Below, in pieces: positions 1,276 through 62,351 of a DNA stretch of 64,000 nt. Made by a program: the position numbers and the translations under genes. The number at the start of each line of letters is the position of its first letter. Within the stretch, counting starts at the first letter, position 1. Origin of the DNA: Nemertoderma westbladi (taxonomy: Eukaryota; Animalia; Xenacoelomorpha); contig JAUCBJ010007175.1 in the NCBI GenBank assembly GCA_032718475.1, positions 60,290 to 124,289 on the forward strand, in the 5' to 3' direction. Below the pieces are notes generated by a model. The model was not told where the DNA came from, did no database searches, and saw only the letters and a program-made list of their open reading frames with translations.

Positions 1276-2049
1276 TTATGGCTCTGTGGGGTATTTCCCC
1301 GTTCCCAAGTTTTTTTGGTTATGCAACCTCTTTCGAGTTATTTACAAATAAAAAACCGCAGGGGTCGGGAGGTGGTCCCCTCCCTCCTTAATTAGTGAAT
1401 TAATTTACACAAATGCAAAAACACTGTAAGTACAAAAAATAACCCTGAAGTCAAAATATTAATGGAAAGTGAAAAATAATCACGTTGAAAAATTTCCCAA
1501 CCCAATTGCGTAGGGTTATAAAAAATTTGTAATTTACGGACATTTTAACCAACAATCTGAAGGAAAACAGTAATTTGCGTTTTACTCGAAATGACCTTGT
1601 TTTCACTTGCGGTCTTTTCACATTTCACTGCAGAACTTATATTTATCTTAGTTTATGTTTCGCTAACATTCAGTAGGTTAATGTAAGTGTGGTTTACAAT
1701 GTTGCTGTCACATGCAAATGTTCAAGTTTCAAGGTTAAATTCAGTTGTAACTTAAGCCTAATTTTTTTATCTCTACCCTATTATTAATTTTTAACACTGT
1801 AACTCAGCATTGAGTTACACCTAAGCGATTGGATCCATCGCAAGCCATAGTGATTATTCAAAAACCCCTCGACGTAATTCGACAACTAAACGGACAGTTT
1901 ACTCCCTAAAAATAGATTAATACTGCCAAAAATATGGCAGTATGTCTAACTTATTCATTAGGTTTGTGGCTTTTAAACCCCAATTTACGATAATATTTGA
2001 TAAAAGGTAATTATTATTATTGAAAATATAAGGGTTATATTTTTGAGTT

Positions 2050-5000
2050 TCATATACAGGAATATATTGATGTGTTTTATCGTATACAGGAATATATTTG
2101 TGTTTTATCATATACAGGAATATATTGATGTGTTTTATCGTATACAGGAATATATTGATGTGTTTTATCATATACAGGAATATATTTATGTGTTTTATCA
2201 TATACAGGAATATATTTATGTGTTTTATCATATACAGGAATATATTTATGTGTTTTATCATATACAGGAATATATTGATGTGTTTTATCGTATACAGGAA
2301 TATATTGATGTGTTTTATCATATACAGGAATATATTTATGTGTTTTATCATATACAGGAATATATTTATGTGTTTTATCATATACAGGAATATATTTATG
2401 TGTTTTATCATATACAGGAATATATTTATGTGTTTTATCATATACAGGAATATATTTATGTGTTTTATCATATACAGGAATATATTTATGTGTTTTATCA
2501 TATACAGGAATATATTTATGTGTTTTATCATATACAGGAATATATTTATGTGTTTTATCGTATACAGGAATATATTTGTGTTTTATCATATACAGGAATA
2601 TATTGATATGTTTTATCGTATACAGGAATATATTTATGTGTTTTATCATATACAGGAATATATTTATGTGTTTTATCATATACAGGAATATATTTATGTG
2701 TTTTATCATATACAGGAATATATTTATGTGTTTTATCATATACAGGAATATATTTATGTGTTTTATCATATACAGGAATATATTGATGTGTTTTATCGTA
2801 TACAGGAATATATTGATATGTTTTATCGTATACAGGAATATATTTGTGTTTTATCATATACAGGAATATATTGATATGTTTTATCGTATACAGGAATATA
2901 TTTATGTGTTTTATCATATACAGGAATATATTTATGTGTTTTATCATATACAGGAATATATTTATGTGTTTTATCATATACAGGAATATATTTATGTGTT
3001 TTATCATATACAGGAATATATTTATGTGTTTTATCATATACAGGAATATATTTATGTGTTTTATCATATACAGGAATATATTTATGTGTTTTATCATATA
3101 CAGGAATATATTTATGTGTTTTATCATATACAGGAATATATTGATATGTTTTATCGTATACAGGAATATATTTATGTGTTTTATCATATACAGGAATATA
3201 TTGATATGTTTTATCATATACAGGAATATATTTATGTGTTTTATCATATACAGGAATATATTGATGTGTTTTATCGTATACAGGAATATATTGATGTGTT
3301 TTATCATATACAGGAATATATTTATGTGTTTTATCATATACAGGAATATATTTATGTGTTTTATCATATACAGGAATATATTTATGTGTTTTATCATATA
3401 CAGGAATATATTTATGTGTTTTATCATATACAGGAATATATTTATGTGTTTTATCATATACAGGAATATATTTATGTGTTTTATCATATACAGGAATATA
3501 TTTATGTGTTTTATCATATACAGGAATATATTTATGTGTTTTATCATATACAGGAATATATTTATGTGTTTTATCATATACAGGAATATATTTATGTGTT
3601 TTATCATATACAGGAATATATTTATGTGTTTTATCATATACAGGAATATATTTATGTGTTTTATCATATACAGGAATATATTTATGTGTTTTATCATATA
3701 CAGGAATATATTTATGTGTTTTATCATATACAGGAATATATTTATGTGTTTTATCATATACAGGAATATATTTATGTGTTTTATCATATACAGGAATATA
3801 TTTATGTGTTTTATCATATACAGGAATATATTTATGTGTTTTATCGTATACAGGAATATATTTGTGTTTTATCATATACAGGAATATATTGATATGTTTT
3901 ATCGTATACAGGAATATATTTATGTGTTTTATCATATACAGGAATATATTTATGTGTTTTATCATATACAGGAATATATTTATGTGTTTTATCATATACA
4001 GGAATATATTTATGTGTTTTATCATATACAGGAATATATTTATGTGTTTTATCATATACAGGAATATATTGATGTGTTTTATCGTATACAGGAATATATT
4101 GATATGTTTTATCGTATACAGGAATATATTTGTGTTTTATCATATACAGGAATATATTGATATGTTTTATCGTATACAGGAATATATTTATGTGTTTTAT
4201 CATATACAGGAATATATTTATGTGTTTTATCATATACAGGAATATATTTATGTGTTTTATCATATACAGGAATATATTTATGTGTTTTATCATATACAGG
4301 AATATATTTATGTGTTTTATCATATACAGGAATATATTTATGTGTTTTATCATATACAGGAATATATTTATGTGTTTTATCATATACAGGAATATATTTA
4401 TGTGTTTTATCATATACAGGAATATATTGATATGTTTTATCGTATACAGGAATATATTTATGTGTTTTATCATATACAGGAATATATTGATATGTTTTAT
4501 CATATACAGGAATATATTTATGTGTTTTATCATATACAGGAATATATTGATGTGTTTTATCGTATACAGGAATATATTGATGTGTTTTATCGTATACAGG
4601 AATATATTGATATGTTTTATCGTATACAGGAATATATTGATATGTTTTATCGTATACAGGAATATATTTATGTGTTTTATCATATACAGTATACAGGAAT
4701 ATATTGATATGTTTTATCGTATACAGGAATATATTTATGTGTTTTATCATATACAGGAATATATTTATGTGTTTTATCATATACATGAATATATTTATGT
4801 GTTTTATCATATACAGGAATATATTTATGTGTTTTATCATATACAGGAATATATTTATGTGTTTTATCATATACAGGAATATATTTAGTGTTTTATCATA
4901 TACAGGAATATATTGATGTGTTTTATCATATACAGGAATATATTGCTATGTTTTATCGTATACAGGAATATATTTATGTGTTTTATCATATACAGGAATA

Positions 5001-8000
5001 TATTTATGTGTTTTATCATATACAGGAATATATTTATGTGTTTTATCATATACAGGAATATATTTATGTGTTTTATCATATACAGGAATATATTTATGTG
5101 TTTTATCATATACAGGAATATATTTATGTGTTTTATCATATACAGGAATATATTTATGTGTTTTATCATATACAGGAATATATTTATGTGTTTTATCGTA
5201 TACAGGAATATATTGATGTGTTTTATCGTATACAGGAATATATTGATATGTTTTATCGTATACAGGAATATATTGATATGTTTTATCGTATACAGGATTA
5301 TATTTATGTGTTTTATCATATACAGGAATATATTTATGTGTTTTATCATATACAGGAATATATTTATGTGTTTTATCATATACAGGAATATATTGATATG
5401 TTTTATCATATACAGGAATATATTTATGTGTTTTATCATATACAGGAATATATTGATGTGTTTTATCGTATACAGGAATATATTGATGTGTTTTATCGTA
5501 TACAGGAATATATTGATATGTTTTATCGTATACAGGAATATATTGATATGTTTTATCGTATACAGGAATATATTTATGTGTTTTATCATATACAGGAATA
5601 TATTTATGTGTTTTATCATATACAGGAATATATTGATGTGTTTTATCATATACAGGAATATATTGATATGTTTTATCGTATACAGGAATATATTTATGTG
5701 TTTTATCATATACAGGAATATATTTATGTGTTTTATCATATACAGGAATATATTTATGTGTTTTATCATATACAGGAATATATTTATGTGTTTTATCATA
5801 TACAGGAATATATTTATGTGTTTTATCATATACAGGAATATATTTATGTGTTTTATCATATACAGGAATATATTTATGTGTTTTATCATATACAGGAATA
5901 TATTTATGTGTTTTATCATATACAGGAATATATTGATATGTTTTATCGTATACAGGAATATATTTATGTGTTTTATCATATACAGGAATATATTTATGTG
6001 TTTTATCATATACAGGAATATATTTATGTGTTTTATCATATACAGGAATATATTGATGTGTTTTATCGTATACAGGAATATATTTATGTGTTTTATCATA
6101 TACAGGAATATATTTATGTGTTTTATCATATACAGGAATATATTGATATGTTTTATCGTATACAGGAATATATTTATGTGTTTTATCATATACAGGAATA
6201 TATTGATGTGTTTTATCGTATACAGGAATATATTGATATGTTTTATCGTATACAGGAATATATTGATATGTTTTATCGTATACAGGAATATATTTATGTG
6301 TTTTATCATATACAGGAATATATTTATGTGTTTTATCATATACAGGAATATATTGATGTGTTTTATCATATACAGGAATATATTGATATGTTTTATCGTA
6401 TACAGGAATATATTTATGTGTTTTATCATATACAGGAATATATTTATGTGTTTTATCATATACAGGAATATATTTATGTGTTTTATCATATACAGGAATA
6501 TATTTATGTGTTTTATCATATACAGGAATATATTTATGTGTTTTATCATATACAGGAATATATTTATGTGTTTTATCATATACAGGAATATATTTATGTG
6601 TTTTATCATATACAGGAATATATTTATGTGTTTTATCATATACAGGAATATATTGATATGTTTTATCGTATACAGGAATATATTTATGTGTTTTATCATA
6701 TACAGGAATATATTTATGTGTTTTATCATATACAGGAATATATTTATGTGTTTTATCATATACAGGAATATATTGATATGTTTTATCGTATACAGGAATA
6801 TATTGATGTGTTTTATCATATACAGGAATATATTGATATGTTTTATCGTATACAGGAATATATTTATGTGTTTTATCATATACAGGAATATATTTATGTG
6901 TTTTATCATATACAGGAATATATTTATGTGTTTTATCATATACAGGAATATATTTATGTGTTTTATCGTATACAGGAATATATTTATGTGTTTTATCATA
7001 TACAGGAATATATTTATGTGTTTTATCATATACAGGAATATATTTATGTGTTTTATCATATACAGGAATATATTTATGTGTTTTATCATATACAGGAATA
7101 TATTTATGTGTTTTATCATATACAGGAATATATTGATGTGTTTTATCATATACAGGAATATATTGATATGTTTTATCGTATACAGGAATATATTTATGTG
7201 TTTTATCATATACAGGAATATATTTATGTGTTTTATCATATACAGGAATATATTTATGTGTTTTATCATATACAGGAATATATTTATGTGTTTTATCATA
7301 TACAGGAATATATTTATGTGTTTTATCATATACAGGAATATATTTATGTGTTTTATCATATACAGGAATATATTTATGTGTTTTATCATATACAGGAATA
7401 TATTTATGTGTTTTATCATATACAGGAATATATTGATATGTTTTATCGTATACAGGAATATATTTATGTGTTTTATCATATACAGGAATATATTTATGTG
7501 TTTTATCATATACAGGAATATATTTATGTGTTTTATCATATACAGGAATATATTGATGTGTTTTATCGTATACAGGAATATATTTATGTGTTTTATCATA
7601 TACAGGAATATATTTATGTGTTTTATCATATACAGGAATATATTGATATGTTTTATCGTATACAGGAATATATTTATGTGTTTTATCATATACAGGAATA
7701 TATTGATGTGTTTTATCGTATACAGGAATATATTGATATGTTTTATCGTATACAGGAATATATTGATATGTTTTATCGTATACAGGAATATATTTATGTG
7801 TTTTATCATATACAGGAATATATTTATGTGTTTTATCATATACAGGAATATATTGATGTGTTTTATCATATACAGGAATATATTGATATGTTTTATCGTA
7901 TACAGGAATATATTTATGTGTTTTATCATATACAGGAATATATTTATGTGTTTTATCATATACAGGAATATATTTATGTGTTTTATCATATACAGGAATA

Positions 8001-11000
8001 TATTTATGTGTTTTATCATATACAGGAATATATTTATGTGTTTTATCATATACAGGAATATATTTATGTGTTTTATCATATACAGGAATATATTTATGTG
8101 TTTTATCATATACAGGAATATATTTATGTGTTTTATCATATACAGGAATATATTTATGTGTTTTATCATATACAGGAATATATTTATGTGTTTTATCATA
8201 TACAGGAATATATTTATGTGTTTTATCATATACAGGAATATATTTATGTGTTTTATCATATACAGGAATATATTTATGTGTTTTATCATATACAGGAATA
8301 TATTTATGTGTTTTATCATATACAGGAATATATTTATGTGTTTTATCATATACAGGAATATATTTATGTGTTTTATCATATACAGGAATATATTTATGTG
8401 TTTTATCATATACAGGAATATATTTATGTGTTTTATCATATACAGGAATATATTTATGTGTTTTATCATATACAGGAATATATTTATGTGTTTTATCATA
8501 TACAGGAATATATTTATGTGTTTTATCGTATACAGGAATATATTATGTGTTTTATCATATACAGGAATATATTGATATGTTTTATCGTATACAGGAATAT
8601 ATTTATGTGTTTTATCATATACAGGAATATATTTATGTGTTTTATCATATACAGGAATATATTTATGTGTTTTATCATATACAGGAATATATTTATGTGT
8701 TTTATCATATACAGGAATATATTTATGTGTTTTATCATATACAGGAATATATTGATGTGTTTTATCGTATACAGGAATATATTGATATGTTTTATCGTAT
8801 ACAGGAATATATTTGTGTTTTATCATATACAGGAATATATTGATATGTTTTATCGTATACAGGAATATATTTATGTGTTTTATCATATACAGGAATATAT
8901 TTATGTGTTTTATCATATACAGGAATATATTTATGTGTTTTATCATATACAGGAATATATTTATGTGTTTTATCATATACAGGAATATATTGATATGTTT
9001 TATCGTATACAGGAATATATTTATGTGTTTTATCATATACAGGAATATATTTATGTGTTTTATCATATACAGGAATATATTTATGTGTTTTATCATATAC
9101 AGGAATATATTGATGTGTTTTATCGTATACAGGAATATATTTATGTGTTTTATCATATACAGGAATATATTTATGTGTTTTATCATATACAGGAATATAT
9201 TGATATGTTTTATCGTATACAGGAATATATTTATGTGTTTTATCATATACAGGAATATATTGATGTGTTTTATCGTATACAGGAATATATTGATATGTTT
9301 TATCGTATACAGGAATATATTGATATGTTTTATCGTATACAGGAATATATTTATGTGTTTTATCATATACAGGAATATATTTATGTGTTTTATCATATAC
9401 AGGAATATATTGATGTGTTTTATCATATACAGGAATATATTGATATGTTTTATCGTATACAGGAATATATTTATGTGTTTTATCATATACAGGAATATAT
9501 TTATGTGTTTTATCATATACAGGAATATATTGATGTGTTTTATCATATACAGGAATATATTGATATGTTTTATCGTATACAGGAATATATTTATGTGTTT
9601 TATCATATACAGGAATATATTTATGTGTTTTATCATATACAGGAATATATTTATGTGTTTTATCATATACAGGAATATATTTATGTGTTTTATCATATAC
9701 AGGAATATATTTATGTGTTTTATCATATACAGGAATATATTTATGTGTTTTATCATATACAGGAATATATTTATGTGTTTTATCATATACAGGAATATAT
9801 TTATGTGTTTTATCATATACAGGAATATATTGATATGTTTTATCGTATACAGGAATATATTTATGTGTTTTATCATATACAGGAATATATTTATGTGTTT
9901 TATCATATACAGGAATATATTTATGTGTTTTATCATATACAGGAATATATTGATATGTTTTATCGTATACAGGAATATATTGATGTGTTTTATCATATAC
10001 AGGAATATATTGATATGTTTTATCGTATACAGGAATATATTTATGTGTTTTATCATATACAGGAATATATTTATGTGTTTTATCATATACAGGAATATAT
10101 TTATGTGTTTTATCATATACAGGAATATATTTATGTGTTTTATCGTATACAGGAATATATTTATGTGTTTTATCATATACAGGAATATATTTATGTGTTT
10201 TATCATATACAGGAATATATTTATGTGTTTTATCATATACAGGAATATATTTATGTGTTTTATCATATACAGGAATATATTTATGTGTTTTATCATATAC
10301 AGGAATATATTGATGTGTTTTATCATATACAGGAATATATTGATATGTTTTATCGTATACAGGAATATATTTATGTGTTTTATCATATACAGGAATATAT
10401 TTATGTGTTTTATCATATACAGGAATATATTTATGTGTTTTATCATATACAGGAATATATTTATGTGTTTTATCATATACAGGAATATATTTATGTGTTT
10501 TATCATATACAGGAATATATTTATGTGTTTTATCATATACAGGAATATATTTATGTGTTTTATCATATACAGGAATATATTTATGTGTTTTATCATATAC
10601 AGGAATATATTGATATGTTTTATCGTATACAGGAATATATTTATGTGTTTTATCATATACAGGAATATATTTATGTGTTTTATCATATACAGGAATATAT
10701 TTATGTGTTTTATCATATACAGGAATATATTGATGTGTTTTATCGTATACAGGAATATATTTATGTGTTTTATCATATACAGGAATATATTTATGTGTTT
10801 TATCATATACAGGAATATATTGATATGTTTTATCGTATACAGGAATATATTTATGTGTTTTATCATATACAGGAATATATTGATGTGTTTTATCGTATAC
10901 AGGAATATATTGATATGTTTTATCGTATACAGGAATATATTGATATGTTTTATCGTATACAGGAATATATTTATGTGTTTTATCATATACAGGAATATAT

Positions 11001-14000
11001 TTATGTGTTTTATCATATACAGGAATATATTGATGTGTTTTATCATATACAGGAATATATTGATATGTTTTATCGTATACAGGAATATATTTATGTGTTT
11101 TATCATATACAGGAATATATTTATGTGTTTTATCATATACAGGAATATATTTATGTGTTTTATCATATACAGGAATATATTTATGTGTTTTATCATATAC
11201 AGGAATATATTTATGTGTTTTATCATATACAGGAATATATTTATGTGTTTTATCATATACAGGAATATATTTATGTGTTTTATCATATACAGGAATATAT
11301 TTATGTGTTTTATCATATACAGGAATATATTTATGTGTTTTATCATATACAGGAATATATTTATGTGTTTTATCATATACAGGAATATATTTATGTGTTT
11401 TATCATATACAGGAATATATTTATGTGTTTTATCATATACAGGAATATATTTATGTGTTTTATCATATACAGGAATATATTTATGTGTTTTATCATATAC
11501 AGGAATATATTTATGTGTTTTATCATATACAGGAATATATTTATGTGTTTTATCATATACAGGAATATATTTATGTGTTTTATCATATACAGGAATATAT
11601 TTATGTGTTTTATCATATACAGGAATATATTTATGTGTTTTATCATATACAGGAATATATTTATGTGTTTTATCATATACAGGAATATATTTATGTGTTT
11701 TATCGTATACAGGAATATATTTGTGTTTTATCATATACAGGAATATATTGATATGTTTTATCGTATACAGGAATATATTTATGTGTTTTATCATATACAG
11801 GAATATATTTATGTGTTTTATCATATACAGGAATATATTTATGTGTTTTATCATATACAGGAATATATTTATGTGTTTTATCATATACAGGAATATATTT
11901 ATGTGTTTTATCATATACAGGAATATATTGATGTGTTTTATCGTATACAGGAATATATTGATATGTTTTATCGTATACAGGAATATATTTGTGTTTTATC
12001 ATATACAGGAATATATTGATATGTTTTATCGTATACAGGAATATATTTATGTGTTTTATCATATACAGGAATATATTTATGTGTTTTATCATATACAGGA
12101 ATATATTTATGTGTTTTATCATATACAGGAATATATTTATGTGTTTTATCATATACAGGAATATATTGATATGTTTTATCGTATACAGGAATATATTTAT
12201 GTGTTTTATCATATACAGGAATATATTTATGTGTTTTATCATATACAGGAATATATTTATGTGTTTTATCATATACAGGAATATATTGATGTGTTTTATC
12301 GTATACAGGAATATATTTATGTGTTTTATCATATACAGGAATATATTTATGTGTTTTATCATATACAGGAATATATTGATATGTTTTATCGTATACAGGA
12401 ATATATTTATGTGTTTTATCATATACAGGAATATATTGATGTGTTTTATCGTATACAGGAATATATTGATATGTTTTATCGTATACAGGAATATATTGAT
12501 ATGTTTTATCGTATACAGGAATATATTTATGTGTTTTATCATATACAGGAATATATTTATGTGTTTTATCATATACAGGAATATATTGATGTGTTTTATC
12601 ATATACAGGAATATATTGATATGTTTTATCGTATACAGGAATATATTTATGTGTTTTATCATATACAGGAATATATTTATGTGTTTTATCATATACAGGA
12701 ATATATTTATGTGTTTTATCATATACAGGAATATATTTATGTGTTTTATCATATACAGGAATATATTTATGTGTTTTATCATATACAGGAATATATTTAT
12801 GTGTTTTATCATATACAGGAATATATTGATATGTTTTATCGTATACAGGAATATATTGATGTGTTTTATCATATACAGGAATATATTGATATGTTTTATC
12901 GTATACAGGAATATATTTATGTGTTTTATCATATACAGGAATATATTTATGTGTTTTATCATATACAGGAATATATTTATGTGTTTTATCATATACAGGA
13001 ATATATTTATGTGTTTTATCGTATACAGGAATATATTTATGTGTTTTATCATATACAGGAATATATTTATGTGTTTTATCATATACAGGAATATATTTAT
13101 GTGTTTTATCATATACAGGAATATATTTATGTGTTTTATCATATACAGGAATATATTTATGTGTTTTATCATATACAGGAATATATTGATGTGTTTTATC
13201 ATATACAGGAATATATTGATATGTTTTATCGTATACAGGAATATATTTATGTGTTTTATCATATACAGGAATATATTTATGTGTTTTATCATATACAGGA
13301 ATATATTTATGTGTTTTATCATATACAGGAATATATTTATGTGTTTTATCATATACAGGAATATATTTATGTGTTTTATCATATACAGGAATATATTTAT
13401 GTGTTTTATCATATACAGGAATATATTTATGTGTTTTATCATATACAGGAATATATTTATGTGTTTTATCATATACAGGAATATATTGATATGTTTTATC
13501 GTATACAGGAATATATTTATGTGTTTTATCATATACAGGAATATATTTATGTGTTTTATCATATACAGGAATATATTTATGTGTTTTATCATATACAGGA
13601 ATATATTGATGTGTTTTATCGTATACAGGAATATATTTATGTGTTTTATCATATACAGGAATATATTTATGTGTTTTATCATATACAGGAATATATTGAT
13701 ATGTTTTATCGTATACAGGAATATATTTATGTGTTTTATCATATACAGGAATATATTGATGTGTTTTATCGTATACAGGAATATATTGATATGTTTTATC
13801 GTATACAGGAATATATTGATATGTTTTATCGTATACAGGAATATATTTATGTGTTTTATCATATACAGGAATATATTTATGTGTTTTATCATATACAGGA
13901 ATATATTGATGTGTTTTATCATATACAGGAATATATTGATATGTTTTATCGTATACAGGAATATATTTATGTGTTTTATCATATACAGGAATATATTTAT

Positions 14001-17000
14001 GTGTTTTATCATATACAGGAATATATTTATGTGTTTTATCATATACAGGAATATATTTATGTGTTTTATCATATACAGGAATATATTTATGTGTTTTATC
14101 ATATACAGGAATATATTTATGTGTTTTATCATATACAGGAATATATTTATGTGTTTTATCATATACAGGAATATATTTATGTGTTTTATCATATACAGGA
14201 ATATATTTATGTGTTTTATCATATACAGGAATATATTTATGTGTTTTATCATATACAGGAATATATTTATGTGTTTTATCATATACAGGAATATATTTAT
14301 GTGTTTTATCATATACAGGAATATATTTATGTGTTTTATCATATACAGGAATATATTTATGTGTTTTATCATATACAGGAATATATTTATGTGTTTTATC
14401 ATATACAGGAATATATTTATGTGTTTTATCATATACAGGAATATATTTATGTGTTTTATCATATACAGGAATATATTTATGTGTTTTATCATATACAGGA
14501 ATATATTTATGTGTTTTATCATATACAGGAATATATTTATGTGTTTTATCGTATACAGGAATATATTTATGTGTTTTATCATATACAGGAATATATTGAT
14601 ATGTTTTATCGTATACAGGAATATATTTATGTGTTTTATCATATACAGGAATATATTTATGTGTTTTATCATATACAGGAATATATTTATGTGTTTTATC
14701 ATATACAGGAATATATTGATGTGTTTTATCGTATACAGGAATATATTTATGTGTTTTATCATATACAGGAATATATTTATGTGTTTTATCATATACAGGA
14801 ATATATTGATATGTTTTATCGTATACAGGAATATATTTATGTGTTTTATCATATACAGGAATATATTGATGTGTTTTATCGTATACAGGAATATATTGAT
14901 ATGTTTTATCGTATACAGGAATATATTGATATGTTTTATCGTATACAGGAATATATTTATGTGTTTTATCATATACAGGAATATATTTATGTGTTTTATC
15001 ATATACAGGAATATATTGATGTGTTTTATCATATACAGGAATATATTGATATGTTTTATCGTATACAGGAATATATTTATGTGTTTTATCATATACAGGA
15101 ATATATTTATGTGTTTTATCATATACAGGAATATATTTATGTGTTTTATCATATACAGGAATATATTTATGTGTTTTATCATATACAGGAATATATTTAT
15201 GTGTTTTATCATATACAGGAATATATTTATGTGTTTTATCATATACAGGAATATATTGATGTGTTTTATCGTATACAGGAATATATTGATGTGTTTTATC
15301 GTATACAGGAATATATTGATATGTTTTATCGTATACAGGAATATATTGATATGTTTTATCGTATACAGGAATATATTTATGTGTTTTATCATATACAGTA
15401 TACAGGAATATATTGATATGTTTTATCGTATACAGGAATATATTTATGTGTTTTATCATATACAGGAATATATTTATGTGTTTTATCATATACATGAATA
15501 TATTTATGTGTTTTATCATATACAGGAATATATTTATGTGTTTTATCATATACAGGAATATATTTATGTGTTTTATCATATACAGGAATATATTTGTGTT
15601 TTATCATATACAGGAATATATTGATGTGTTTTATCATATACAGGAATATATTGATATGTTTTATCGTATACAGGAATATATTTATGTGTTTTATCATATA
15701 CAGGAATATATTTATGTGTTTTATCATATACAGGAATATATTTATGTGTTTTATCATATACAGGAATATATTTATGTGTTTTATCATATACAGGAATATA
15801 TTTATGTGTTTTATCATATACAGGAATATATTTATGTGTTTTATCATATACAGGAATATATTTATGTGTTTTATCATATACAGGAATATATTTATGTGTT
15901 TTATCGTATACAGGAATATATTGATGTGTTTTATCGTATACAGGAATATATTGATATGTTTTATCGTATACAGGAATATATTGATATGTTTTATCGTATA
16001 CAGGATTATATTTATGTGTTTTATCATATACAGGAATATATTTATGTGTTTTATCATATACAGGAATATATTTATGTGTTTTATCATATACAGGAATATA
16101 TTTATGTGTTTTATCATATACAGGAATATATTGATGTGTTTTATCATATACAGGAATATATTGATATGTTTTATCGTATACAGGAATATATTTATGTGTT
16201 TTATCATATACAGGAATATATTTATGTGTTTTATCATATACAGGAATATATTTATGTGTTTTATCATATACAGGAATATATTTATGTGTTTTATCATATA
16301 CAGGAATATATTTATGTGTTTTATCATATACAGGAATATATTTATGTGTTTTATCATATACAGGAATATATTGATATGTTTTATCGTATACAGGAATATA
16401 TTGATGTGTTTTATCATATACAGGAATATATTGATATGTTTTATCGTATACAGGAATATATTTATGTGTTTTATCATATACAGGAATATATTTATGTGTT
16501 TTATCATATACAGGAATATATTTATGTGTTTTATCATATACAGGAATATATTTATGTGTTTTATCGTATACAGGAATATATTGATGTGTTTTATCGTATA
16601 CAGGAATATATTGATGTGTTTTATCGTATACAGGAATATATTGATATGTTTTATCGTATACAGGAATATATTGATATGTTTTATCGTATACAGGAATATA
16701 TTGATATGTTTTATCGTATACAGGAATATATTTATGTGTTTTATCATATACAGGAATATATTGATGTGTTTTATCGTATACAGGAATATATTGATGTGTT
16801 TTATCATATACAGGAATATATTTATGTGTTTTATCATATACAGGAATATATTTATGTGTTTTATCATATACAGGAATATATTTATGTGTTTTATCATATA
16901 CAGGAATATATTTATGTGTTTTATCATATACAGGAATATATTTATGTGTTTTATCATATACAGGAATATATTTATGTGTTTTATCATATACAGGAATATA

Positions 17001-20000
17001 TTTATGTGTTTTATCATATACAGGAATATATTGATATGTTTTATCGTATACAGGAATATATTTATGTGTTTTATCATATACAGGAATATATTGATGTGTT
17101 TTATCATATACAGGAATATATTGATATGTTTTATCGTATACAGGAATATATTGATATGTTTTATCGTATACAGGAATATATTTATGTGTTTTATCATATA
17201 CAGGAATATATTTATGTGTTTTATCATATACAGGAATATATTTATGTGTTTTATCATATACAGGAATATATTTATGTGTTTTATCATATACAGGAATATA
17301 TTTATGTGTTTTATCATATACAGGAATATATTTATGTGTTTTATCATATACAGGAATATATTTATGTGTTTTATCATATACAGGAATATATTTATGTGTT
17401 TTATCATATACAGGAATATATTTATGTGTTTTATCATATACAGGAATATATTTATGTGTTTTATCATATACAGGAATATATTTATGTGTTTTATCATATA
17501 CAGGAATATATTTATGTGTTTTATCATATACAGGAATATATTGATGTGTTTTATCGTATACAGGAATATATTGATATGTTTTATCGTATACAGGAATATA
17601 TTGATATGTTTTATCGTATACAGGAATATATTTATGTGTTTTATCATATACAGGAATATATTTATGTGTTTTATCATATACAGGAATATATTGATGTGTT
17701 TTATCATATACAGGAATATATTGATATGTTTTATCGTATACAGGAATATATTTATGTGTTTTATCATATACAGGAATATATTTATGTGTTTTATCATATA
17801 CAGGAATATATTTATGTGTTTTATCATATACAGGAATATATTTATGTGTTTTATCATATACAGGAATATATTTATGTGTTTTATCATATACAGGAATATA
17901 TTTATGTGTTTTATCATATACAGGAATATATTGATATGTTTTATCGTATACAGGAATATATTGATGTGTTTTATCATATACAGGAATATATTGATATGTT
18001 TTATCGTATACAGGAATATATTTATGTGTTTTATCATATACAGGAATATATTTATGTGTTTTATCATATACAGGAATATATTTATGTGTTTTATCATATA
18101 CAGGAATATATTTATGTGTTTTATCGTATACAGGAATATATTGATGTGTTTTATCGTATACAGGAATATATTGATGTGTTTTATCGTATACAGGAATATA
18201 TTGATATGTTTTATCGTATACAGGAATATATTGATATGTTTTATCGTATACAGGAATATATTGATATGTTTTATCGTATACAGGAATATATTTATGTGTT
18301 TTATCATATACAGGAATATATTGATGTGTTTTATCGTATACAGGAATATATTGATGTGTTTTATCATTAATTATACAGGAATATATTTATGTGTTTTATC
18401 ATATACAGGAATATATTTATGTGTTTTATCATATACAGGAATATATTTATGTGTTTTATCATATACAGGAATATATTTATGTGTTTTATCATATACAGGA
18501 ATATATTTATGTGTTTTATCATATACAGGAATATATTTATGTGTTTTATCATATACAGGAATATATTTATGTGTTTTATCATATACAGGAATATATTTAT
18601 GTGTTTTATCATATACAGGAATATATTTATGTGTTTTATCATATACAGGAATATATTTATGTGTTTTATCATATACAGGAATATATTTATGTGTTTTATC
18701 ATATACAGGAATATATTGATATGTTTTATCGTATACAGGAATATATTTATGTGTTTTATCATATACAGGAATATATTTATGTGTTTTATCATATACAGGA
18801 ATATATTTATGTGTTTTATCATATACAGGAATATATTGATGTGTTTTATCGTATACAGGAATATATTTATGTGTTTTATCATATACAGGAATATATTTAT
18901 GTGTTTTATCATATACAGGAATATATTGATATGTTTTATCGTATACAGGAATATATTTATGTGTTTTATCATATACAGGAATATATTGATGTGTTTTATC
19001 GTATACAGGAATATATTGATATGTTTTATCGTATACAGGAATATATTGATATGTTTTATCGTATACAGGAATATATTTATGTGTTTTATCATATACAGGA
19101 ATATATTTATGTGTTTTATCATATACAGGAATATATTGATGTGTTTTATCATATACAGGAATATATTGATATGTTTTATCGTATACAGGAATATATTTAT
19201 GTGTTTTATCATATACAGGAATATATTTATGTGTTTTATCATATACAGGAATATATTTATGTGTTTTATCATATACAGGAATATATTTATGTGTTTTATC
19301 ATATACAGGAATATATTTATGTGTTTTATCATATACAGGAATATATTTATGTGTTTTATCATATACAGGAATATATTGATATGTTTTATCGTATACAGGA
19401 ATATATTGATGTGTTTTATCATATACAGGAATATATTGATATGTTTTATCGTATACAGGAATATATTTATGTATTTTATCATATACAGGAATATATTTAT
19501 GTGTTTTATCATATACAGGAATATATTTATGTGTTTTATCATATACAGGAATATATTTATGTGTTTTATCGTATACAGGAATATATTGATGTGTTTTATC
19601 GTATACAGGAATATATTGATGTGTTTTATCGTATACAGGAATATATTGATATGTTTTATCGTATACAGGAATATATTGATATGTTTTATCGTATACAGGA
19701 ATATATTGATATGTTTTATCGTATACAGGAATATATTTATGTGTTTTATCATATACAGGAATATATTGATGTGTTTTATCGTATACAGGAATATATTGAT
19801 GTGTTTTATCATATACAGGAATATATTTATGTGTTTTATCATATACAGGAATATATTTATGTGTTTTATCATATACAGGAATATATTTATGTGTTTTATC
19901 ATATACAGGAATATATTTATGTGTTTTATCATATACAGGAATATATTTATGTGTTTTATCATATACAGGAATATATTTATGTGTTTTATCATATACAGGA

Positions 20001-21210
20001 ATATATTTATGTGTTTTATCATATACAGGAATATATTGATATGTTTTATCGTATACAGGAATATATTTATGTGTTTTATCATATACAGGAATATATTGAT
20101 GTGTTTTATCATATACAGGAATATATTGATATGTTTTATCGTATACAGGAATATATTGATATGTTTTATCGTATACAGGAATATATTTATGTGTTTTATC
20201 ATATACAGGAATATATTTATGTGTTTTATCATATACAGGAATATATTGATGTGTTTTATCATATACAGGAATATATTGATATGTTTTATCGTATACAGGA
20301 ATATATTTATGTGTTTTATCATATACAGGAATATATTTATGTGTTTTATCATATACAGGAATATATTTATGTGTTTTATCATATACAGGAATATATTTAT
20401 GTGTTTTATCATATACAGGAATATATTTATGTGTTTTATCATATACAGGAATATATTTATGTGTTTTATCATATACAGGAATATATTTATGTGTTTTATC
20501 GTATACAGGAATATATTGATGTGTTTTATCATATACAGGAATATATTTATGTGTTTTATCATATACAGGAATATATTTATGTGTTTTATCATATACAGGA
20601 ATATATTTATGTGTTTTATCATATACAGGAATATATTTATGTGTTTTATCATATACAGGAATATATTTATGTGTTTTATCATATACAGGAATATATTTAT
20701 GTGTTTTATCATATACAGGAATATATTTATGTGTTTTATCGTATACAGGAATATATTGATGTGTTTTATCATATACAGGAATATATTTATGTGTTTTATC
20801 GTATACAGGAATATATTTATGTGTTTTATCATATACAGGAATATATTTATGTGTTTTATCATATACAGGAATATATTTATGTGTTTTATCGTATACAGGA
20901 ATATATTGATGTGTTTTATCGTATACAGGAATATATTGATATGTTTTATCGTATACAGGAATATATTGATGTGTTTTATCATATACAGGAATATATTTAT
21001 GTGTTTTATCATATACAGGAATATATTTATGTGTTTTATCGTATACAGGAATATATTTATGTGTTTTATCATATACAGGAATATATTTATGTGTTTTATC
21101 GTATACAGGAATATATTGATATGTTTTATCGTATACAGGAATATATTGATATGTTTTATCATATACAGGAATATATTTATGTGTTTTATCATATACAGGA
21201 ATATATTGAT
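2050..21210 (+). repeat. Intronic 30-bp minisatellite/satellite, ~640 units, consensus GAATATATT(T/G)AT(G/A)TGTTTTATC(A/G)TATACAG
   Basis: Directly visible tandem array with three polymorphic sites and rare indel units. The last unit runs straight into exon C. The long ORFs here arise from the 30-bp period. Confidence 0.98.
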
Positions 21211-21339
21211 GCTGCTATGAAAAATGTGAATGAATCGGTTGAGCCAGTTAATGAGTTAATAACTCGATTCAACAAGACGGAGGAACTTGTTGTAGAGAAG
21301 GCTGAGATTATAAATAAAGCCTATGCGAAAGCTGCTGAC
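21199..21339 (+). CDS. Host gene exon C, coiled-coil (probable laminin beta)
   Basis: Acceptor is the CAG of the last satellite unit (21196-21198) and the donor is GTGAGT at 21340. 141 nt, phase 0/0, matching both neighbours. Peptide EYIDAAMKNVNESVEPVNELITRFNKTEELVVEKAEIINKAYAKAAD. Confidence 0.8.
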
Positions 21340-21894
21340 GTGAGTAAATATTTTATGGTAATTTAAATAATTTATGTGTGGCAAACCAACCAATATAATT
21401 CTGAGACTTCTATATACTAAGAATAGTAAAGGAAAGTTACTCGACAAAGAAAATAATATAAATAAGAACTTTGTATCACCTAAAGTTAGTGAATGTTAAC
21501 GGTGTCCGGGCAATTGCGACCCATGATTTTATTAAATTTCCTGGGTCGAAATTGTACGGGTAGCTCAGCTACATTTAAATTACTGTAGCTACATTTTAAA
21601 ATAGCGACTACATTATTCGCAATGTTATATTCTGAAATGCTTTTTATATTAATTTTACTAATTGTATTATAATTACTGTAGCTACATTTAATTACAACAG
21701 CTACATTGGAACAAAAGGGAGGGTTGGCCATACATTATTTGCCATTAGATATTCTGGAATGCTTAGAATTAAAATTAATTGTTTTGGCATAACCTACGTA
21801 TATTGTTAACATTGTTCATGCGTCATTTTTTTTACTAGCTATTGATATAATATATTTATTCTATATAATGTTTTATGAGTTATTATTTATGATC

Positions 21895-22223
21895 GGGTCG
21901 CAATTGTTCCGGTCGCAATTGTCCGTGTCGCAATTGTCCGGGTCGCAATTGTTCCGGTCGCAATTGTCCGGGTCGCGATTGTCCGGGTCGTAATTGTCCG
22001 GGTCGCAATTGTCCGGGTCGCGATTGTCCGGGTCGTAATTGTCCGGGTCGCAATTGTCCGGGTCGCAATTGTCCGGGTCGCAATTGTCCGGGTCGCAATT
22101 GTCCGGGTCGCGATTGTCCGAGTCGCGATTGTCCGGGTCGCAATTGTCCGGGTCGTAATTGTCCGGGTCGCAATTGTCCGGGTCGCAATTGTCCGGGTCG
22201 TAATTGTCCGGGTCGCAATTGTT
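21895..22223. repeat. 15-bp tandem repeat GGGTCGCAATTGTCC (~22 units) in the intron
   Basis: Directly visible. An inverted copy of the unit (CCGGGCAATTGCGACCC) lies at ~21506-21522. Confidence 0.95.
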
Positions 22224-22386
22224 CTAACTTCAATTTTAACTAACCCGTCTTGAGTGAGTTTTGCACGGGTTTGCAGGTTTCGAACAGGAAGACAAAGGAA
22301 GCGATTGTTCTAATTTCCTTTACACAGAAGTAGTAAATAATTTTTAAACAAATCTTGTCACAAATCTCGTTCGTTTTTTTCTGTAG

Positions 22387-22602
22387 TTGAGGGAGGAAAC
22401 AAGGAAAGTGGAAGACGCAATAAACGACGATCAAATAGAATTAGATGAGTTGAGTAAGCGACATGATGAGAAGGCTAAAGGGCTGAAAGATATGGAAGAG
22501 GAACTCATTAGATTGAATAAGGAGCTTGAGAAGGAGGTCGCTGATATGATAGCCAAGGAGAAGTTCTACAGAACATGCGTATCTAAACCACCCATCGATT
22601 AA
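22387..22602 (+). CDS. Host gene terminal exon D, laminin beta-like C-terminus
   Basis: Acceptor TTTTTTTCTGTAG, phase 0, TAA stop. The coiled coil ends ...EVADMIAKEKFYRTC..., resembling the terminal Y-x-x-C motif of laminin beta chains. Family call is from motif recognition only. Confidence 0.7.
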   Translation: MREETRKVEDAINDDQIELDELSKRHDEKAKGLKDMEEELIRLNKELEKEVADMIAKEKFYRTCVSKPPID

Positions 22603-22807
22603 CTTAATTAAAACTTTTAGTAATTATTGTTCATTATTATTATTATTATTGTTATTTTCATTGAATTTTTAGTTGGCGGTCCCATTTTGACAAGTAGACA
22701 CATCTTATTCTTATCTTTAAATAATATTTTATGCATCGGAGATTATACTTTTTTTTTATAGAGTGTCTATTTGTTTAAATCTGTTAATCGGTTAATCTTG
22801 AACACAC

Positions 22808-23365
22808 TGTGACGGGATCCAAGGAGGATCCCGGTTTATCCGCGGTTATTATAAGTACGCGTCCCCGCCGTGTGAATGTGAAAAGAGTCTAAGAGTTCTG
22901 ATGTTATTGATTCTCCGATATATGTATAATGTAATGGGTATAGTATAAATGGATACAGTATAGATGGTTGAAGTACAAAGAGTTATTACGGTATGCACAG
23001 ATAAAATGGTGGTAGGTGAGGACGGTCTTAGAAGTCTCCGCTCTACCCTAGCTAACCGACTAATACAATGAGATAACTGATTACAGTAACATGGTACCTA
23101 ATAATATATATTGCACGGTTTGGCCGTCGTTACACCTAGCCGGTGCCTTCCCCCCATTGGCTAATATCCCTGTTGGCGCCCTTTGGAGTGTTTCCCCTCA
23201 CTCCTGCTATTCTCTCTCTGTCAGGGGTATGGCCCCTGACCCCTATTGTGCGTTTCTCCTTCCCACTTTGTTGGGGTGACACGAGGTTGGGTAATCAACC
23301 TCGTGTTCCCAATATTGCTTAATGGCTCACTTTATGGGGTGTTAGCGGAATTGGATAAGCTAACA
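22808..23365 (-). repeat. 3' LTR of the outer element (558 bp)
   Basis: TG...CA termini. Near-identical to 51787-52334, with about three substitutions and one 3-bp indel seen. Confidence 0.9.
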
Positions 23366-23899: not shown

Positions 23900-25430
23900 A
23901 ACTACGTGGCGCTTAGGGTGCCCACGACCCCTCTACTACTAACTCTAACTAAAACCCCCTAAGTCTACCAACTCTCTAGCCCTTTAACTAGAACTCTAAC
24001 TCTACCCACTCTTCTAACTACGTGGCGCTTGCGGTGCCCACAACCACTCTACTATCTGGCACCCTATGTGCCTGTCTCTACTACTCTACTACCTGGCACC
24101 CTATGTGCCCTCTCTACTATTCTACTCTCTGGCACCCTATGTGCCCTCTCTACTACTCTACTACCTCTAACTCTCTAACTCTACTACCTGGCACCCTATG
24201 TGCCCTCTCTACTACTCTACTCTCTGGCACCCTATGTGCCCTCTCTACTACTTCTAACACTCTAACTCTACTACTTGGCACCCTATGTGCCCTCTCTACT
24301 ACTCTACTCTATCTACATCTTACTCCCTTTCGTCTACTCGACTGCACGTGACGCTCTGAGTGCCGGCAGAGTGGGTACGTTAATTATGTGAACTACTACT
24401 AACTCTTACTAACTCTACTAACTCAACTAACTCTACTAACTCTCTACTAACTCAACTAACTCTACTACTAACTCTACTAACTCAACTAACTCTACTACTA
24501 ACTTCTTGTGCCCGGCACCTCTTGTGCCCGGCACCCACCCTAATTAACATACCCTGCTCTTACATCAAACACGTCATCACGTCCGTGCCCCACTAAGTTC
24601 AACGCATCCCCTACTAACTCTAACTACGTGGCGCTTGCGGTGCCCACAACCACTCTGCTTACTACTTCCTACGTGGCGCTTACGGTGCCCACAACCTCTA
24701 CTGAGGCTACTACTTTCTACGTGGCGCTTATGGTGCCCACAACCCTCTACTGCTCTACTAACTTTCTAACTAACGGTACTACGTACCCTCTTACTAACTA
24801 TACCCCTAACACTCCTAACTAACGGTACTACGTACCCTCTTACTAACTATACCTCTAACACTCCTAACTAACGGTACTACATACCCTCTTACTAACTCCT
24901 CTAACACTCCCTACTAACGGTACTACGTACCCTCTTACTAACTCTAACTGACTAACGGTACTACGTACCCTCTAACTAACTCCTCTAACACTCCCTACTA
25001 ACGGTACTACGTACCCTCTTACTAACTCTAACTGACTAACGGTACTACGTACCCTCTAACTAACTCTAACTAACTAACGGTACTACTCTCTTACTACCTA
25101 ACTTCTACCTACTAACGGTACTACGTACCCTCTCACTAACTTCTCTAACTCTCTCTACTAACTAATGGTACTACGTACCCTCTTACTAACTTCTAACTCC
25201 ACTAACTAACGGTACTACGTACCCTCTTACCAACTTCTCTAACTCTCTCTACTAACTAACGGTACTACGTACCCTCTTACTAACTTATCTAACTCTCTCT
25301 ACTAACTAACGGTACTACGTACCCTCTTACTAACTAACTAACCTCTCTAACTAACGGTACTACGTACCCTCTAACTCTTACTCTCTCTAACTAACGGTAC
25401 TACTCTCGTACTGCCTAACTTCTACCTACT
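23900..25430. repeat. Degenerate interspersed-tandem repeats in the 3' non-coding interior of the outer element
   Basis: Multiple copies of CTACGTGGCGCTT.CGGTGCCCACAAC, GGCACCCTATGTGCC and CTAACGGTACTACGTACCCTCT, separated by CTA-rich spacers. Confidence 0.85.
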
Positions 25431-27342: not shown

Positions 27343-30300
27343 TTAGTCTTTCTTACGCGGACGGCGTTTACGCAGTTTCGTGAGGCTAGCAAGAGTCCTT
27401 TTCTCTTTGGGGCGAGCCACTTTACGAGGAGGGCTGTAGCTCCTAGGCGAAGGGTGCAATTCAATTGCATCAGAAGGTGTAGGGTTACGATCGGTATACC
27501 CGCCGGTCGAAGTGCCTGGTTGATTAATATCAACCTCGGGGGAGCGAGGTCTAACGGCCTTTAGGGCGCGTCTCAGGACAGCAGCTCCTACGGGTCCTTG
27601 ACGGGTCGTCTGGACACTAGCAGTGGGTGGACCGTGAGTGTTGAGGAACTTTCTCGGTTTAATGGTTCTCTCCAGCTCGCGTTCTCGGGTTCGATATTCA
27701 TATGGTCGCCGAGATACTTCCTGTAGTTCAGGATGCGAGTTCACAAAGATGTCGCCATACTCGGGGTCCTGACGGATAAAATTGATCAGGTGATATGTGG
27801 TTATATCATTAGGGTTAACGTTTCTAAGGTATTTTCTGACAAACTTGGTGGAAATACACTCACCAACACGCTTCATTAACTCGTAACTTGGTACGCGTGT
27901 TTTCTGTTCAATCGACGCGAAGAGATAAGGATGGAACGCGTAAACTCCTTCGTAAGCTCGTCCAGGGTAATAGCGATGTCGAGATTCGCAATGTAAATCC
28001 GCGTTCGCTTCCCAAGCTCGGATGTATCGCAGGGTGATTATCTCGTCTACACTCTCTAAATCGCGATTAAAGGGACAATTGTAACTTTCATGTCCTTTGA
28101 GTTGACAGTAGTGACATTGAGTCATAAATTGTGGGCAGACGGCAAAGATATGAGAGTTATTAAGTCTGCAATAAGCACAATATATTTCCATCATCGGTTG
28201 TTCGAGGAAATAGGAACAAGGTACGCTCGAGTCTAGAGGGGTGAAGTGGTCTCTCGATGCGCATAATCGACAACGTTTTCGAGAAACGTAGTTGGCGTGT
28301 CGATAATCGTACGCTGTGAGACGTTGTGGACCTTGATACCACTCTATGACATAATCATTGTCACTGCTCCGGGAAGTTGTAGGCTGAATCGCTTCTGATT
28401 CCAAGCACACTGGTTCATCCTCCAGCTGTATAGACGAAGTGGGTGCGTCTGTTTCAGTAAGTGGATCCACTGTCTGTATTTCCACGACAGAATAACCTGT
28501 ACTACTACTACTACTAGGATCGGCATGCTGCATTGCAGCTGCATTTTTAAGAATGCTGTGCCGGCTTAACCTGTAGGTATTCGGGGTCTTTGTATAACAG
28601 ATGAATGTAAGTTCTGTATACAAACGTCTTGAAACACGGCAAATCCAGCGCTACTCAGTTTCTCCGCAGCTGAGTCTCTCAGACTGAGTTTGGTCAGCGC
28701 GCGATCCTTGAACTGACTATCGACGTTACGGAACGGAGTCAGAAAGCGCCGGAAACATTCGAAACGTATGAACTTATTATGTTCGTCTAACTTGGCGAGT
28801 TTAGTTCCAAGTATTAATGGATGAGCGCGTATGGTACGACTGCACACATCGGCTAGCCAACCGGCAAGTGCTGCGTTTTCAAAGATCGTGTATATAGCTA
28901 AGGAAGGGCGAAGTGGAACACTCATAAAGCTATATACGGCACCAGGCGCAGTTAATGGTCCATCAAAATATAAACGAGAGTAATGATCTCCATATACTTG
29001 CTGGTAATTGGTAGGATTTCCAACTTTGAAATTCCATCCATATTCTTGAAAGGCAAGATGTCCGATGGATGTCCGTTGTACCTTAGTAATGTCGCTGGGT
29101 GTATTGGCATACATAGTGCGAAAGAAACCTCGGCCTTCGGCCCAAGGAGCAATCAGCTGAGTATCAACGAAAGGGTATGGAATGTTTTCCATATTCCGGA
29201 AGTCGTTTTGGAGATCTCCATAAACAGCTGAGCCGATTTTTAGGATTCTTTCGTTAAACAACATTTCGAGCACGGGTTGGGGTAACATTGATCCGTCGAT
29301 ACCCATGGCCGGTTTGCGCTCGGTGTCGGTGACGTAACGCTGCGCGAGCTCGAATTGTCCATGTCGAAGTTTCTTTTGTGTCTCCGTAAGGGTTTCAAAA
29401 GAATAATCAATCACGTCGGAACACGCTCGAGTGAATACGTGGGTAGAACCAGCGAGTCCTCGTATATGTATCATTCGCGTAGTTCCTAGTTCTCCCACCG
29501 GAACGCTACCTTCGTTGTCATAAGTAACAACGCCATACATCTCGATAACGTTAAGAGTCTCGTTCCATTCTTTAGTGGCGTTTTCGAGAGTCATTCCCAC
29601 TGGATGCCACAAAGTAGCGCATTCGCTAGCATTGGGTAAATCTCTATACTTTAAGCATTGTGTAGTATAGGTTTCCACATCTCCATATCGTTTTATTCTT
29701 TCTTCCTCGAATAACACGTCAAGATTCCAGTGTACCAATCGAGTTTTAATGAATCCATCAAGATTGTACGGAGGTAATATTTCTTTCTCTATTCTGGAAA
29801 TATTATACGGTTTTCGAAATGAGTTTAGTTTAACCAGCTGATCTAGATGTTTTTGTAGTTGTTCGAGTTCGACGAGGTCGAGAGGATTGATCAATGGTAG
29901 AAACTTCAGACTATGCGTAGGATCTTCTGGTTTTACCATGTAATATTGCTTTAAATTGACGTAATAAGGATGATCCTTAATTCCATAAAATGAGTCCGGC
30001 AAAGGTCTAGCGCGTATGTTAACATCGTGTACCATGCGACGGACAAGATCCGCTCTATTGTCCGGAGGCTCAACAAGTACACCATCGACACGAGCAGCCG
30101 CTATGGGTGGACGTTGTATCATAGGAGCGTCAGCAATGAGCTCGTGAGATCTGAGATCAGTATTAACCGGTTGAGGCTGTACCGTAGCAAAGAGCTTGTC
30201 TTTAAACTGAGGAACCATCGAGGGGTGGAGGATCGTTTTGGAATAGAGATCCGTCACGAGAATTTGAGTTTCTGGTTGGGCTAAAGCAGCTTCTTCCCTC

Positions 30301-31670
30301 TCAGTCAGTTCTATATGTCTCTCCTCGAGCTGATTTTCCTCAGCTTGTTGTTGCAAGCGCTCGTCCAGGAATTCCTGTAAGGAGTAGGTTCGTCCACGTT
30401 CGATGTCCTCCTCTAGATTCTGTATTTCTCTATCGAACTGGGGCAAAGCTAGTTCTTTCACCGCTTGGACTTGTTGTTGCAATTTACGTTTCTCCAAGCA
30501 ATCGTAAGTTCCTTTTCCGATTTTCTGCCGAATAGCGTCCAATGCATTTCGTATCACGCTCTCTTCGACTTCTGTTACAGGTTGTATCGGAGGGAGGCCA
30601 GGACGGTTGTAGGGGTTAAACGGTGATATTAGATGACCGCGTCCTAGTCCAGCGAGGTAAGGTTGGCGAATATCTAACGAACCCACTACCGGAGTGCCAC
30701 CAATCAACTGTTCAGGTAACACTAGATCTTTGAACAGTGAGTATAGCTCGGGAGGATCCGTAATACTATTAGGATCGAGAGTTTGAGGTATCACTTGGGA
30801 ATGAGGAGGTCTGACCGAGTATTCCGGAACTCTGATCATGGGTTTGTTCAATGATCGTTTAAGGCGCGCGACCGTAGGTGATACGTCGAAAAGGTTTCGC
30901 TCGAAACTCCCATAAGTATATCGCGTAAAACTGTGTTTAGCGCAACGTCTCCGCGGATGTTTATGCCTTTCGATCTGCTGGTTAGGTCTAGGGCATTCGT
31001 CACAGTAATACCAAAGACGCACGTCTTGAAGGGGAAACGCGGGTGATCGCTCTCCAGTTTTACAATATTCCTCCATCTGTTCGAAGCTATCTGGAACGAC
31101 AGGGAGTGGTCGATCGGCGGTAAGATACATCATCGTAAAATAGAGCCGTTTGAGTTCCATCATAGGATCTGGATGTATACCTTGAGGATATCGAGTTTCG
31201 AGGTTTTGTTGACTAGCAACATTGAGATAGGTCTCTCTTAGGAATTCTAGATATTCGTTGAAGCTGCTACGTTTATCAGGTTCTTCAACGTCTTCTCTTT
31301 CGAGTTTATTTCGAATAGAGTTCTCGTGTTCTATTCTCGATTTGTCGTTTCGACTCCGCTGGGTATGATATTTAAATAAAACCATTTCCCTTTCGGTGTC
31401 GACATCGTCGGTATCGTGTAAATCAATAGGATGACCAGTAGTCAGGAAGTCCATATACGTACCATTACGATGCGTATAGCGAGCAGTGAATTTTCTATAG
31501 TCCAATTCACGCGTAAGTTGCTCCTGGGACATGGGCGGTTCGATATAACGACCATCGTCCTCCGTAGTAGTTGGATCAGCGTCGCCGCGTATTAAGCTAT
31601 CGACAAACGCTTGTAAAGGTAGAGTATATCTCTCCCTGATACCAAGATCATCTTCTATTAATTCAGTCAT
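27343..31670 (-). CDS. Accessory ORF3 of the inner BEL element: ~1417 aa when reconstructed, with a DEDDy (WRN/Mut-7/RNase D-like) 3'-5' exonuclease-like domain and three zinc knuckles. Disrupted in this copy.
   Basis: ORFs 28566-31670 and 27343-28623 fuse in frame (RIPTG-YSVVEIQ) once 74 bp (LINE tail + TSD) is removed. Motifs VVTYDNEG, LPQPVLEMLFNERILKIGSAVYGD, PFVDTQLIA and PLRPSLAIYTIFE. Knuckles include CHYCQLKGHESYNC. Confidence 0.75.
28502..28566 (-). mobile_element. 65-bp 3'-terminal fragment of the RTE-like LINE with a (TAG)n tail
   Basis: Identical to 45407-45460 (CTAGGATCGGCATGC...CCGGCTTA) plus a CTA-repeat tail. TSD TAACCTGTA at 28493-28501 and 28567-28575. Confidence 0.92.
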
Positions 31671-36900: not shown

Positions 36901-36923
36901 GGCTTTATCGTAGGAATTGGGCT

Positions 36924-52340: not shown

Positions 52341-52629
52341 CGGACGGACGGACGGACGGACGGACGGACGGACGGACGGACGGACGGACGGACGGACGGA
52401 CGGACGGACGGACGGACGGACGGACGGACGGACGGACGGACGGACGGACGGACGGACGGACGGACGGACGGACGGACGGACGGACGGACGGACGGACGGA
52501 CGGACGGACGGACGGACGGACGGACGGACGGACGGACGGACGGACGGACGGACGGACGGACGGACGGTCGGACGGACGGACGGACGGACGGACGGACGGA
52601 CGGACGGACGGACGGACGGACGGACGGAC
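52341..52629. repeat. (CGGA)n microsatellite, ~72 units
   Basis: Directly visible, with one interrupted unit near 52567. Confidence 0.99.
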
Positions 52630-62134: not shown

Positions 62135-62351
62135 CCATCAAAAACGTAGAGTTGGAACAACCAAAATTGTGGGAGAGAGTTAAATTAATTGTTTTCATGT
62201 AATTGAAATAGTAACATGATTTTATTTAATGTATTTTATGATAAAATGATCTCGAGGGATGACAGGCTAGCAGGTAATTAATTATTGACTATTAGAAGCT
62301 GACCTACTGTACCCATAGCCCACACCCACACCCACACAAAGTTGCTGATAG

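Follow-up and report, generated by a model that had tools for sequence, protein, structure and literature searches.

A mirage of about 640 acceptor copies in one intron, with the last copy as the likely working 3' splice site

How is one acceptor found when some 640 near-copies of it lie between the donor and the exon? The question is raised by a gene at the left end of the window, by which we mean the whole stretch of 64,000 nucleotides of Nemertoderma westbladi DNA that was analysed. An initial annotation had described here a satellite of about 640 copies of the gene's own 3' splice site, with a unit of 30 bp, and TRF bears this out, reporting a tandem array on the forward strand at 2050-21211 with a period of 30, 638.8 copies and 96% matches. 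The array crosses the acceptor and stops at position +13 of the following exon (exon C, 21199-21339), so that its units run head to tail across an exon-intron boundary of the host, as in the junction repeats of amphioxus known as mirages. The array end given earlier, 21339, has to be moved to 21211, since the former coordinate includes exon C. We propose that the array is a mirage of about 640 acceptors and that 638 of them are decoys, which are likely skipped since only the last copy precedes exon sequence and a donor.

Four exons of the host gene were placed on the forward strand of the window and they share one reading frame. The window starts inside exon A (1-84), which has the donor AAA/GTTAGT (the slash marks the splice junction) and continues in an open frame into exon B (528-667, 140 nt). 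Exon B ends at 667 with the phase-0 donor AAG/GTCAGT. The intron that follows (668-21198) has 20,531 nt, of which the array makes up 93%, and its unique part contains high-copy repeats. Exon C, 141 nt long, starts at the last acceptor of the array and has the donor GAC/GTGAGT. The donor AAG/GTCAGT and the 141-nt exon confirm the phases of 0/0 that had been proposed for splicing from 667 to 21199. Exon D (22387-22602) encodes 71 aa and a stop and is likely the last coding exon; its junction with exon C is predicted from the GT/AG ends and the phase.

The host gene likely encodes a laminin beta chain. The best PDB matches of exon D are to laminin beta-1 (E-values of 0.0019 and 0.043; they head a list of 12 matches with E up to 10), the alignments extend to the last, C-terminal residue, and the predicted protein has the C-terminal coiled coil ending in a Tyr-x-x-Cys motif by which laminin beta can be recognized. 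The LN, EGF-like and L4 domains of such a laminin would be encoded upstream of the window. With the host protein, Pfam gave sub-threshold coiled-coil families only and nothing specific, and an Atlas search gave generic coiled-coil clusters only (0.90-0.91, with low recognition). Exon D had no relatives among 108 candidates and no match among 1.84 billion representatives, and an orthologous locus free of the array was not found in these protein searches (108 candidates, 1.84 billion representatives and Atlas). The junction pattern was found in metagenome contigs as two single matches, which we rejected as chance because their flanks were unrelated and tblastn gave no match to exons B, C or D.

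The units of the array have kept the splice signal, as those of a mirage do. The unit contains an A at -20 within a branch-point-like TT(G/T)AT and a run of four T, and the T tract and CAG/G were present as first described. The array has 639 CAG acceptors and 637 CAG/G junctions, with the first exon-like base at 2060 and the last at 21199, and the AG is lost in only 2 of 638 units and retained in 636. The commonest unit, GAATATATTTATGTGTTTTATCATATACAG, accounts for 410 of the 638 units, and the next four types for 108, 43, 34 and 19. It contains TTTAT where the exon's own copy has TTGAT, and it differs from the start of exon C at +10. The unit had been described as the intron end plus the first 12 nucleotides of exon C; this is correct in substance, but the exact 12 exon bases follow only 191 of the 641 AGs, and the first 13 follow 79. 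The 30-bp unit is absent from the rest of the window on both strands, and the sequence from +14 of exon C onward occurs once in the window, in agreement with the earlier statement that only the last unit enters unique coding sequence. An open frame of 1003 codons at 18355-21366 was considered as a gene and rejected, as it arises from the repetition of a unit without stops.

At the left edge the picture has changed. The acceptor at about 2059 had been called native-looking, but the stretch 2026-2049 aligns with the unit in register, with a score that was reached by 7 of 2000 shuffles and by none of 502 AT-matched windows (the stretch having been picked post hoc). It may therefore be a decayed unit at the edge of the array and not an ancestral site, and from the sequence we regard it as either a degenerate unit or the ancestral intron end. 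Further to the left, decayed units were not supported before 2026 (for 2004-2029, 1747 of 2000 shuffles were equally good).

Use of the decoys would have different consequences along the array. Translation from the first acceptor confirmed the predicted peptide, followed by a stop, and altogether 544 of the 638 decoys carry a stop. The 94 decoys nearest to exon C (18379-21169) are in frame with it and stop-free, and the stretch that they open (18379-21198, forward strand) would add 10 residues per unit. NMD can therefore not hide their use. NMD had been put forward as the key control; the decoys that are best placed to compete are these 94, and they lie outside its reach.

Which acceptor is joined to the donor at 667 can be read from one assembled contig. 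The run search comprised 6 runs (4 with matches; 3 studies), and all four matching runs were labelled 'DNA?' and none as RNA. These are X1 from sample S1, X2 and X3 from S2, and X4 from S3. A contig of X4, 2498 nt long and with a depth of 364, covers 1-84 and 528-668 without any other letters and has a GT..AG joint from 84 to 528, which is why we take X4 to be likely RNA despite the label of the run. The contig leaves the window at 668 and its next 30 letters are those of 21200-21229. This 30-mer is unique in the window, and its last 18 bases belong to the part of the exon that the decoys lack; the donor at 667 is therefore likely joined to the last acceptor. Splicing from 667 to 21199, which the initial annotation had proposed, was thus seen when the transcript check was run on assembled contigs, in one RNA-like contig of one run. 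This contig comes from other animals (S3), which may or may not carry the array. Beyond the junction it continues unbroken at a depth of 364 for 499 more letters, which would end near 22745 if they comprised exons C and D followed by part of the 3' UTR. X4 coverage was absent over the array bins 1989-2125, and also over 21105-21742 and 22207-22830, where exons C and D lie. Such gaps prove nothing by themselves, but the missing cover on exons C and D sits uneasily with the splice read from the contig. We regard the array as a genuine mirage that is transcribed and apparently tolerated.

The preference for the last copy is not easily explained by the acceptor as such. The 30 bases upstream of it are common to 412 of the 641 AGs, the real one included. 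From -30 to +13 the sequence is identical in 48 of 641 AGs, which leaves 47 decoys identical to the real site over this range, and from -60 to +13 it is identical in 4, again with the real one included; with +14 it is found in one only. Decoys can match the real site as far as +13, so what settles the choice is likely the exon sequence together with the donor downstream. In our view, exon definition is the likeliest reason why the last copy is chosen: the acceptor, with its tract of four T, would be weak alone and would be activated only across the exon, and the spliceosome would skip the 638 decoys because only after the last copy does true exon sequence follow, with a good donor 141 bases further on. 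Activation would come from U1 at 21340 and from purine-rich elements of the exon, acting on the nearest upstream AG. The sequence is consistent with this. The T run of four compares with runs of five and seven at the gene's two other acceptors in the window, and the pyrimidine tract of the unit is the weakest of the three. Exon C has a GC content of 0.38, 12 GAR words and 5 words of the GAAG type, against 0.21, 5 and 0 in 141 bases of decoy sequence.

Exon definition alone would be insufficient, since the nearest decoys would yield exons of 171, 201, 231 nt and so on (171-291 nt), which are of ordinary size. A short-range effect of the enhancers must therefore be assumed. In work in vitro ascribed to Reed and Maniatis (1986), duplicated acceptors followed by truncated exon sequence were reportedly skipped, and enhancers are said to weaken with distance. 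A role of the array as a sink for U2AF or U2, which the initial annotation had raised, is unlikely because of the weak tract and the single locus.

Instead of being skipped, the decoys could be used to an appreciable extent. The 544 products with a stop would then be lost to NMD or nuclear decay and the 94 stop-free, in-frame decoys would give minor isoforms, that is, laminin whose coiled coil is longer by 10, 20 or more residues. Leakage of this kind has been described in the available part of a study on human donor-side repeats, where the genes 6-16 and CBS (intron 13) leak to the nearest pseudo-sites, using the two nearest pseudo-donors (PMC1557585). Rare forms would be invisible in contigs: assembly loses them, and minor use of decoys could escape the X4 contig. 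Against this, the X4 contig is unbroken for 499 letters past the junction at a depth of 364, which fits one dominant form, and an insert of 10 residues rich in aromatics would probably put the coiled coil out of its heptad register. We therefore consider appreciable leakage unlikely, and skipping of the decoys the better reading. A related possibility, to which we give little weight, is that the array acts as a rheostat, in which the working acceptor is no fixed inheritance but whichever unit is currently the last, turnover swaps one unit for another, and the array length tunes the amount of laminin beta with 10-residue inserts from the 94 in-frame decoys. If true, this would be a case of splicing control driven by a satellite, and the largest natural series of decoy acceptors on record.

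The skipping of 638 decoys also presupposes that the array is as long as assembled and is present where the RNA was made. It could be shorter or more variable, or the animals that supplied the RNA could have few copies or none; X4 is indeed from a different sample (S3). Estimates of the number of units from read depth, scaled by simulation, were about 270-310 for X1, 340-520 for X2 and 50-60 for X3, all below 639, and those of the two runs of S2 lie 6- to 8-fold apart, so that depth is unreliable as a measure of copy number. On the other hand, both DNA samples pass from the left flank into the letters of the array: contigs of X1 and X2 span 1634-2079 and a contig of X3 spans 1566-2099, with X3 alone satisfying the rule of 31 letters bridging into the array. 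A de Bruijn simulation of the window predicted a break at 2079, where the contigs of X1 and X2 end. A branch at +13, as expected of an allele without the array, was not found in the X1-X3 contigs of the two DNA samples. Furthermore, two of the three DNA runs indicate hundreds of units, and patterned higher-order blocks and recurring rare variants in the array fit a real array that was resolved by the assembly. Hundreds of copies are thus plausible, the length of 19 kb being taken from the assembly alone, and an array so short or so variable as to remove the problem of choice seems to us a slim chance.

The DNA runs hold one more hint on the working acceptor of the mirage. On the right side, 21192 is the first base of the contigs from X1 and X2, 10 bases past the simulated start at 21182, and it directly follows the variable A/G base of the unit at -8. 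Contig starts at this place in both S1 and S2 suggest two variants of the terminal unit, and the working acceptor possibly has two alleles, with A or G at -8. X2 contigs differ from the window in places. One of them has 37 extra letters at 498-499, about 30 bases before the acceptor of exon B, perhaps an intron polymorphism of sample S2. A 15-bp tandem repeat of 22 copies (21894-22222), located in the intron that follows exon C, has a very high summed depth in the DNA runs and joints to 21530, and is therefore likely part of a dispersed repeat.

The decoys could also be masked, either by a silencer within the U/A-rich unit or by RNA structure, with the palindrome AATATATT pairing adjacent units. 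When 21049-21260 was folded, the minimum-energy structure did pair unit with unit across each acceptor, but it is not stabler than shuffles (z of -0.94; 32 of 200 did equally well), and the real acceptor lies within the same hairpin. We rejected RNA structure as a discriminator on these grounds and consider masking very improbable. Recursive splicing, in which the intron of 20.5 kb would be removed stepwise via its many acceptors with the last one as the final step, is hardly credible and its sites were rejected, since an AG followed by a strong GT donor is missing (no CAG/GT in the array; CAG is followed by GA in 637 of 639 cases, by TA in 2 and by GT in none), neither GTAAG nor GTGAG occurs anywhere in the array, and the GT contexts that do occur are poor donors.

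The origin of the mirage may lie in the junction itself. A near-repeat TATATT(T/G)ATG is present once at the intron end, as TATATTTATG, and once at the exon start, as TATATTGATG, spaced 30 bases apart and in the register of the unit. Slippage or unequal exchange between the two could have copied the junction and would account for both main unit types. Growth seems to have proceeded through duplication of whole blocks, the largest comprising at least 76 units: the longest repeated run has 76 units (at 6256 and 9433), and in 200 shuffles the mean was 14.5 and the maximum 24. These blocks and the degenerate unit at the left edge agree with the concerted turnover and divergent boundary units of a mirage. 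The array may have been retained because it is nearly harmless, in a part of the genome where long arrays abound, and most likely it has no function of its own. Long arrays appear to be common here, as the window holds a second array of 8.8 kb and several shorter ones.

Minisatellites that span a splice junction form a class that has been described before (PMC3087553, PMC1557585, as far as the available parts of these papers go), and what is new here is the scale. In amphioxus, splicing is reportedly undisturbed by mirages (available parts of PMC3087553 and PMC3902484). They occur in the globin genes BflGb6 and BflGb9; in BflGb6, the 3' end of an intron and the beginning of the next exon are repeated in tandem, with 6 and 3 units, length instability and divergent boundary units (PMC3087553, in part); further amphioxus mirages are those of Adh3 (Canestro 2002, as cited in the same part) and of troponin C and PGBD5 (PMC3902484, in part). 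As far as these sources go, the present array resembles them in the type of copy, in a splice signal that is mostly kept, and in concerted evolution with divergent boundary units, and normal mRNA is made in amphioxus. BflGb6 has 3-6 units of 150-160 bp with 81-100% identity in the portion available, whereas the array described here has 638 extra units of 30 bp. It differs further in taking up 93% of a 20.5-kb intron, in the AG kept by 636 of 638 units, in its higher-order blocks and in its 94 in-frame decoys.

Human minisatellites have been described on the donor side, with 5-9 copies in F7 intron 7, 25 pseudo-sites in 6-16, 15-20 copies in CBS intron 13, 10-15 in LMNB2 and 16-18 in PDGF (PMC1557585, available part). 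Here as there, identical splice sites lie in an intron and the exon-adjacent copy is used mainly or only. In the human arrays, as far as described in that part, these are donors and the first copy wins, whereas here an acceptor is repeated and it is the last copy that prevails, with 19 kb of transcribed decoys ahead of it; the copy number is about 25 times that of the largest human case (638 decoys against at most 25). In CBS 844ins68, too, an intron/exon junction is present twice; splicing strongly prefers the distal copy and yields normal mRNA (PMC2630376, in part). The CBS case shares duplication and distal use with the present case and differs, in the part of the paper available, in having two copies of 68 bp, a linked point change and no satellite. 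The Drosophila genes kl-3 and kl-5 have gigantic introns filled with satellites (PMC6508621, PMC11207136). They share with our gene an intron made mostly of tandem repeats and differ in their megabase scale, and the available parts of these papers make no mention of satellites that copy the gene's own splice site. An acceptor-side array of hundreds of copies was not found in the literature searched, which mostly excluded subscription papers.

The mirage is an extreme natural control for the choice of a 3' splice site, since hundreds of acceptors have an identical branch point, pyrimidine tract and AG. The decoys are transcribed before the site that is used, which implies that first-come scanning from the donor is not the rule, if the RNA result holds in carriers of the array. 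As 94 decoys are stop-free, error rates could be plotted as a function of distance to the exon, free of bias from NMD.

Elsewhere in the window, three arrays abut at 52341-62135, namely (CGGA) in 72 copies, a 38-bp satellite in 228 copies (8.8 kb) and (ACCACA) in 108 copies. Long ORFs of 1218, 807 and 711 aa lie on the reverse strand at 33316-42668, and their motifs resemble those of a BEL/Pao retrotransposon; a 690-aa ORF on the same strand (45440-47512) resembles a LINE reverse transcriptase. Two overlapping ORFs of 435 and 1039 aa, the first rich in Cys and His, are also found on the reverse strand at 27343-31685. An intronless ORF of 222 codons (62352-63020, reverse strand) encodes a product rich in Cys that has hydrophobic termini and a stalk rich in Thr; it had no relative among 166 candidates, and its sequence suggests a secreted or GPI-anchored protein. 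Lastly, a cluster of short tandem repeats rich in C, T and A, with a strong GC skew, lies just downstream of the host gene at 23900-25400.
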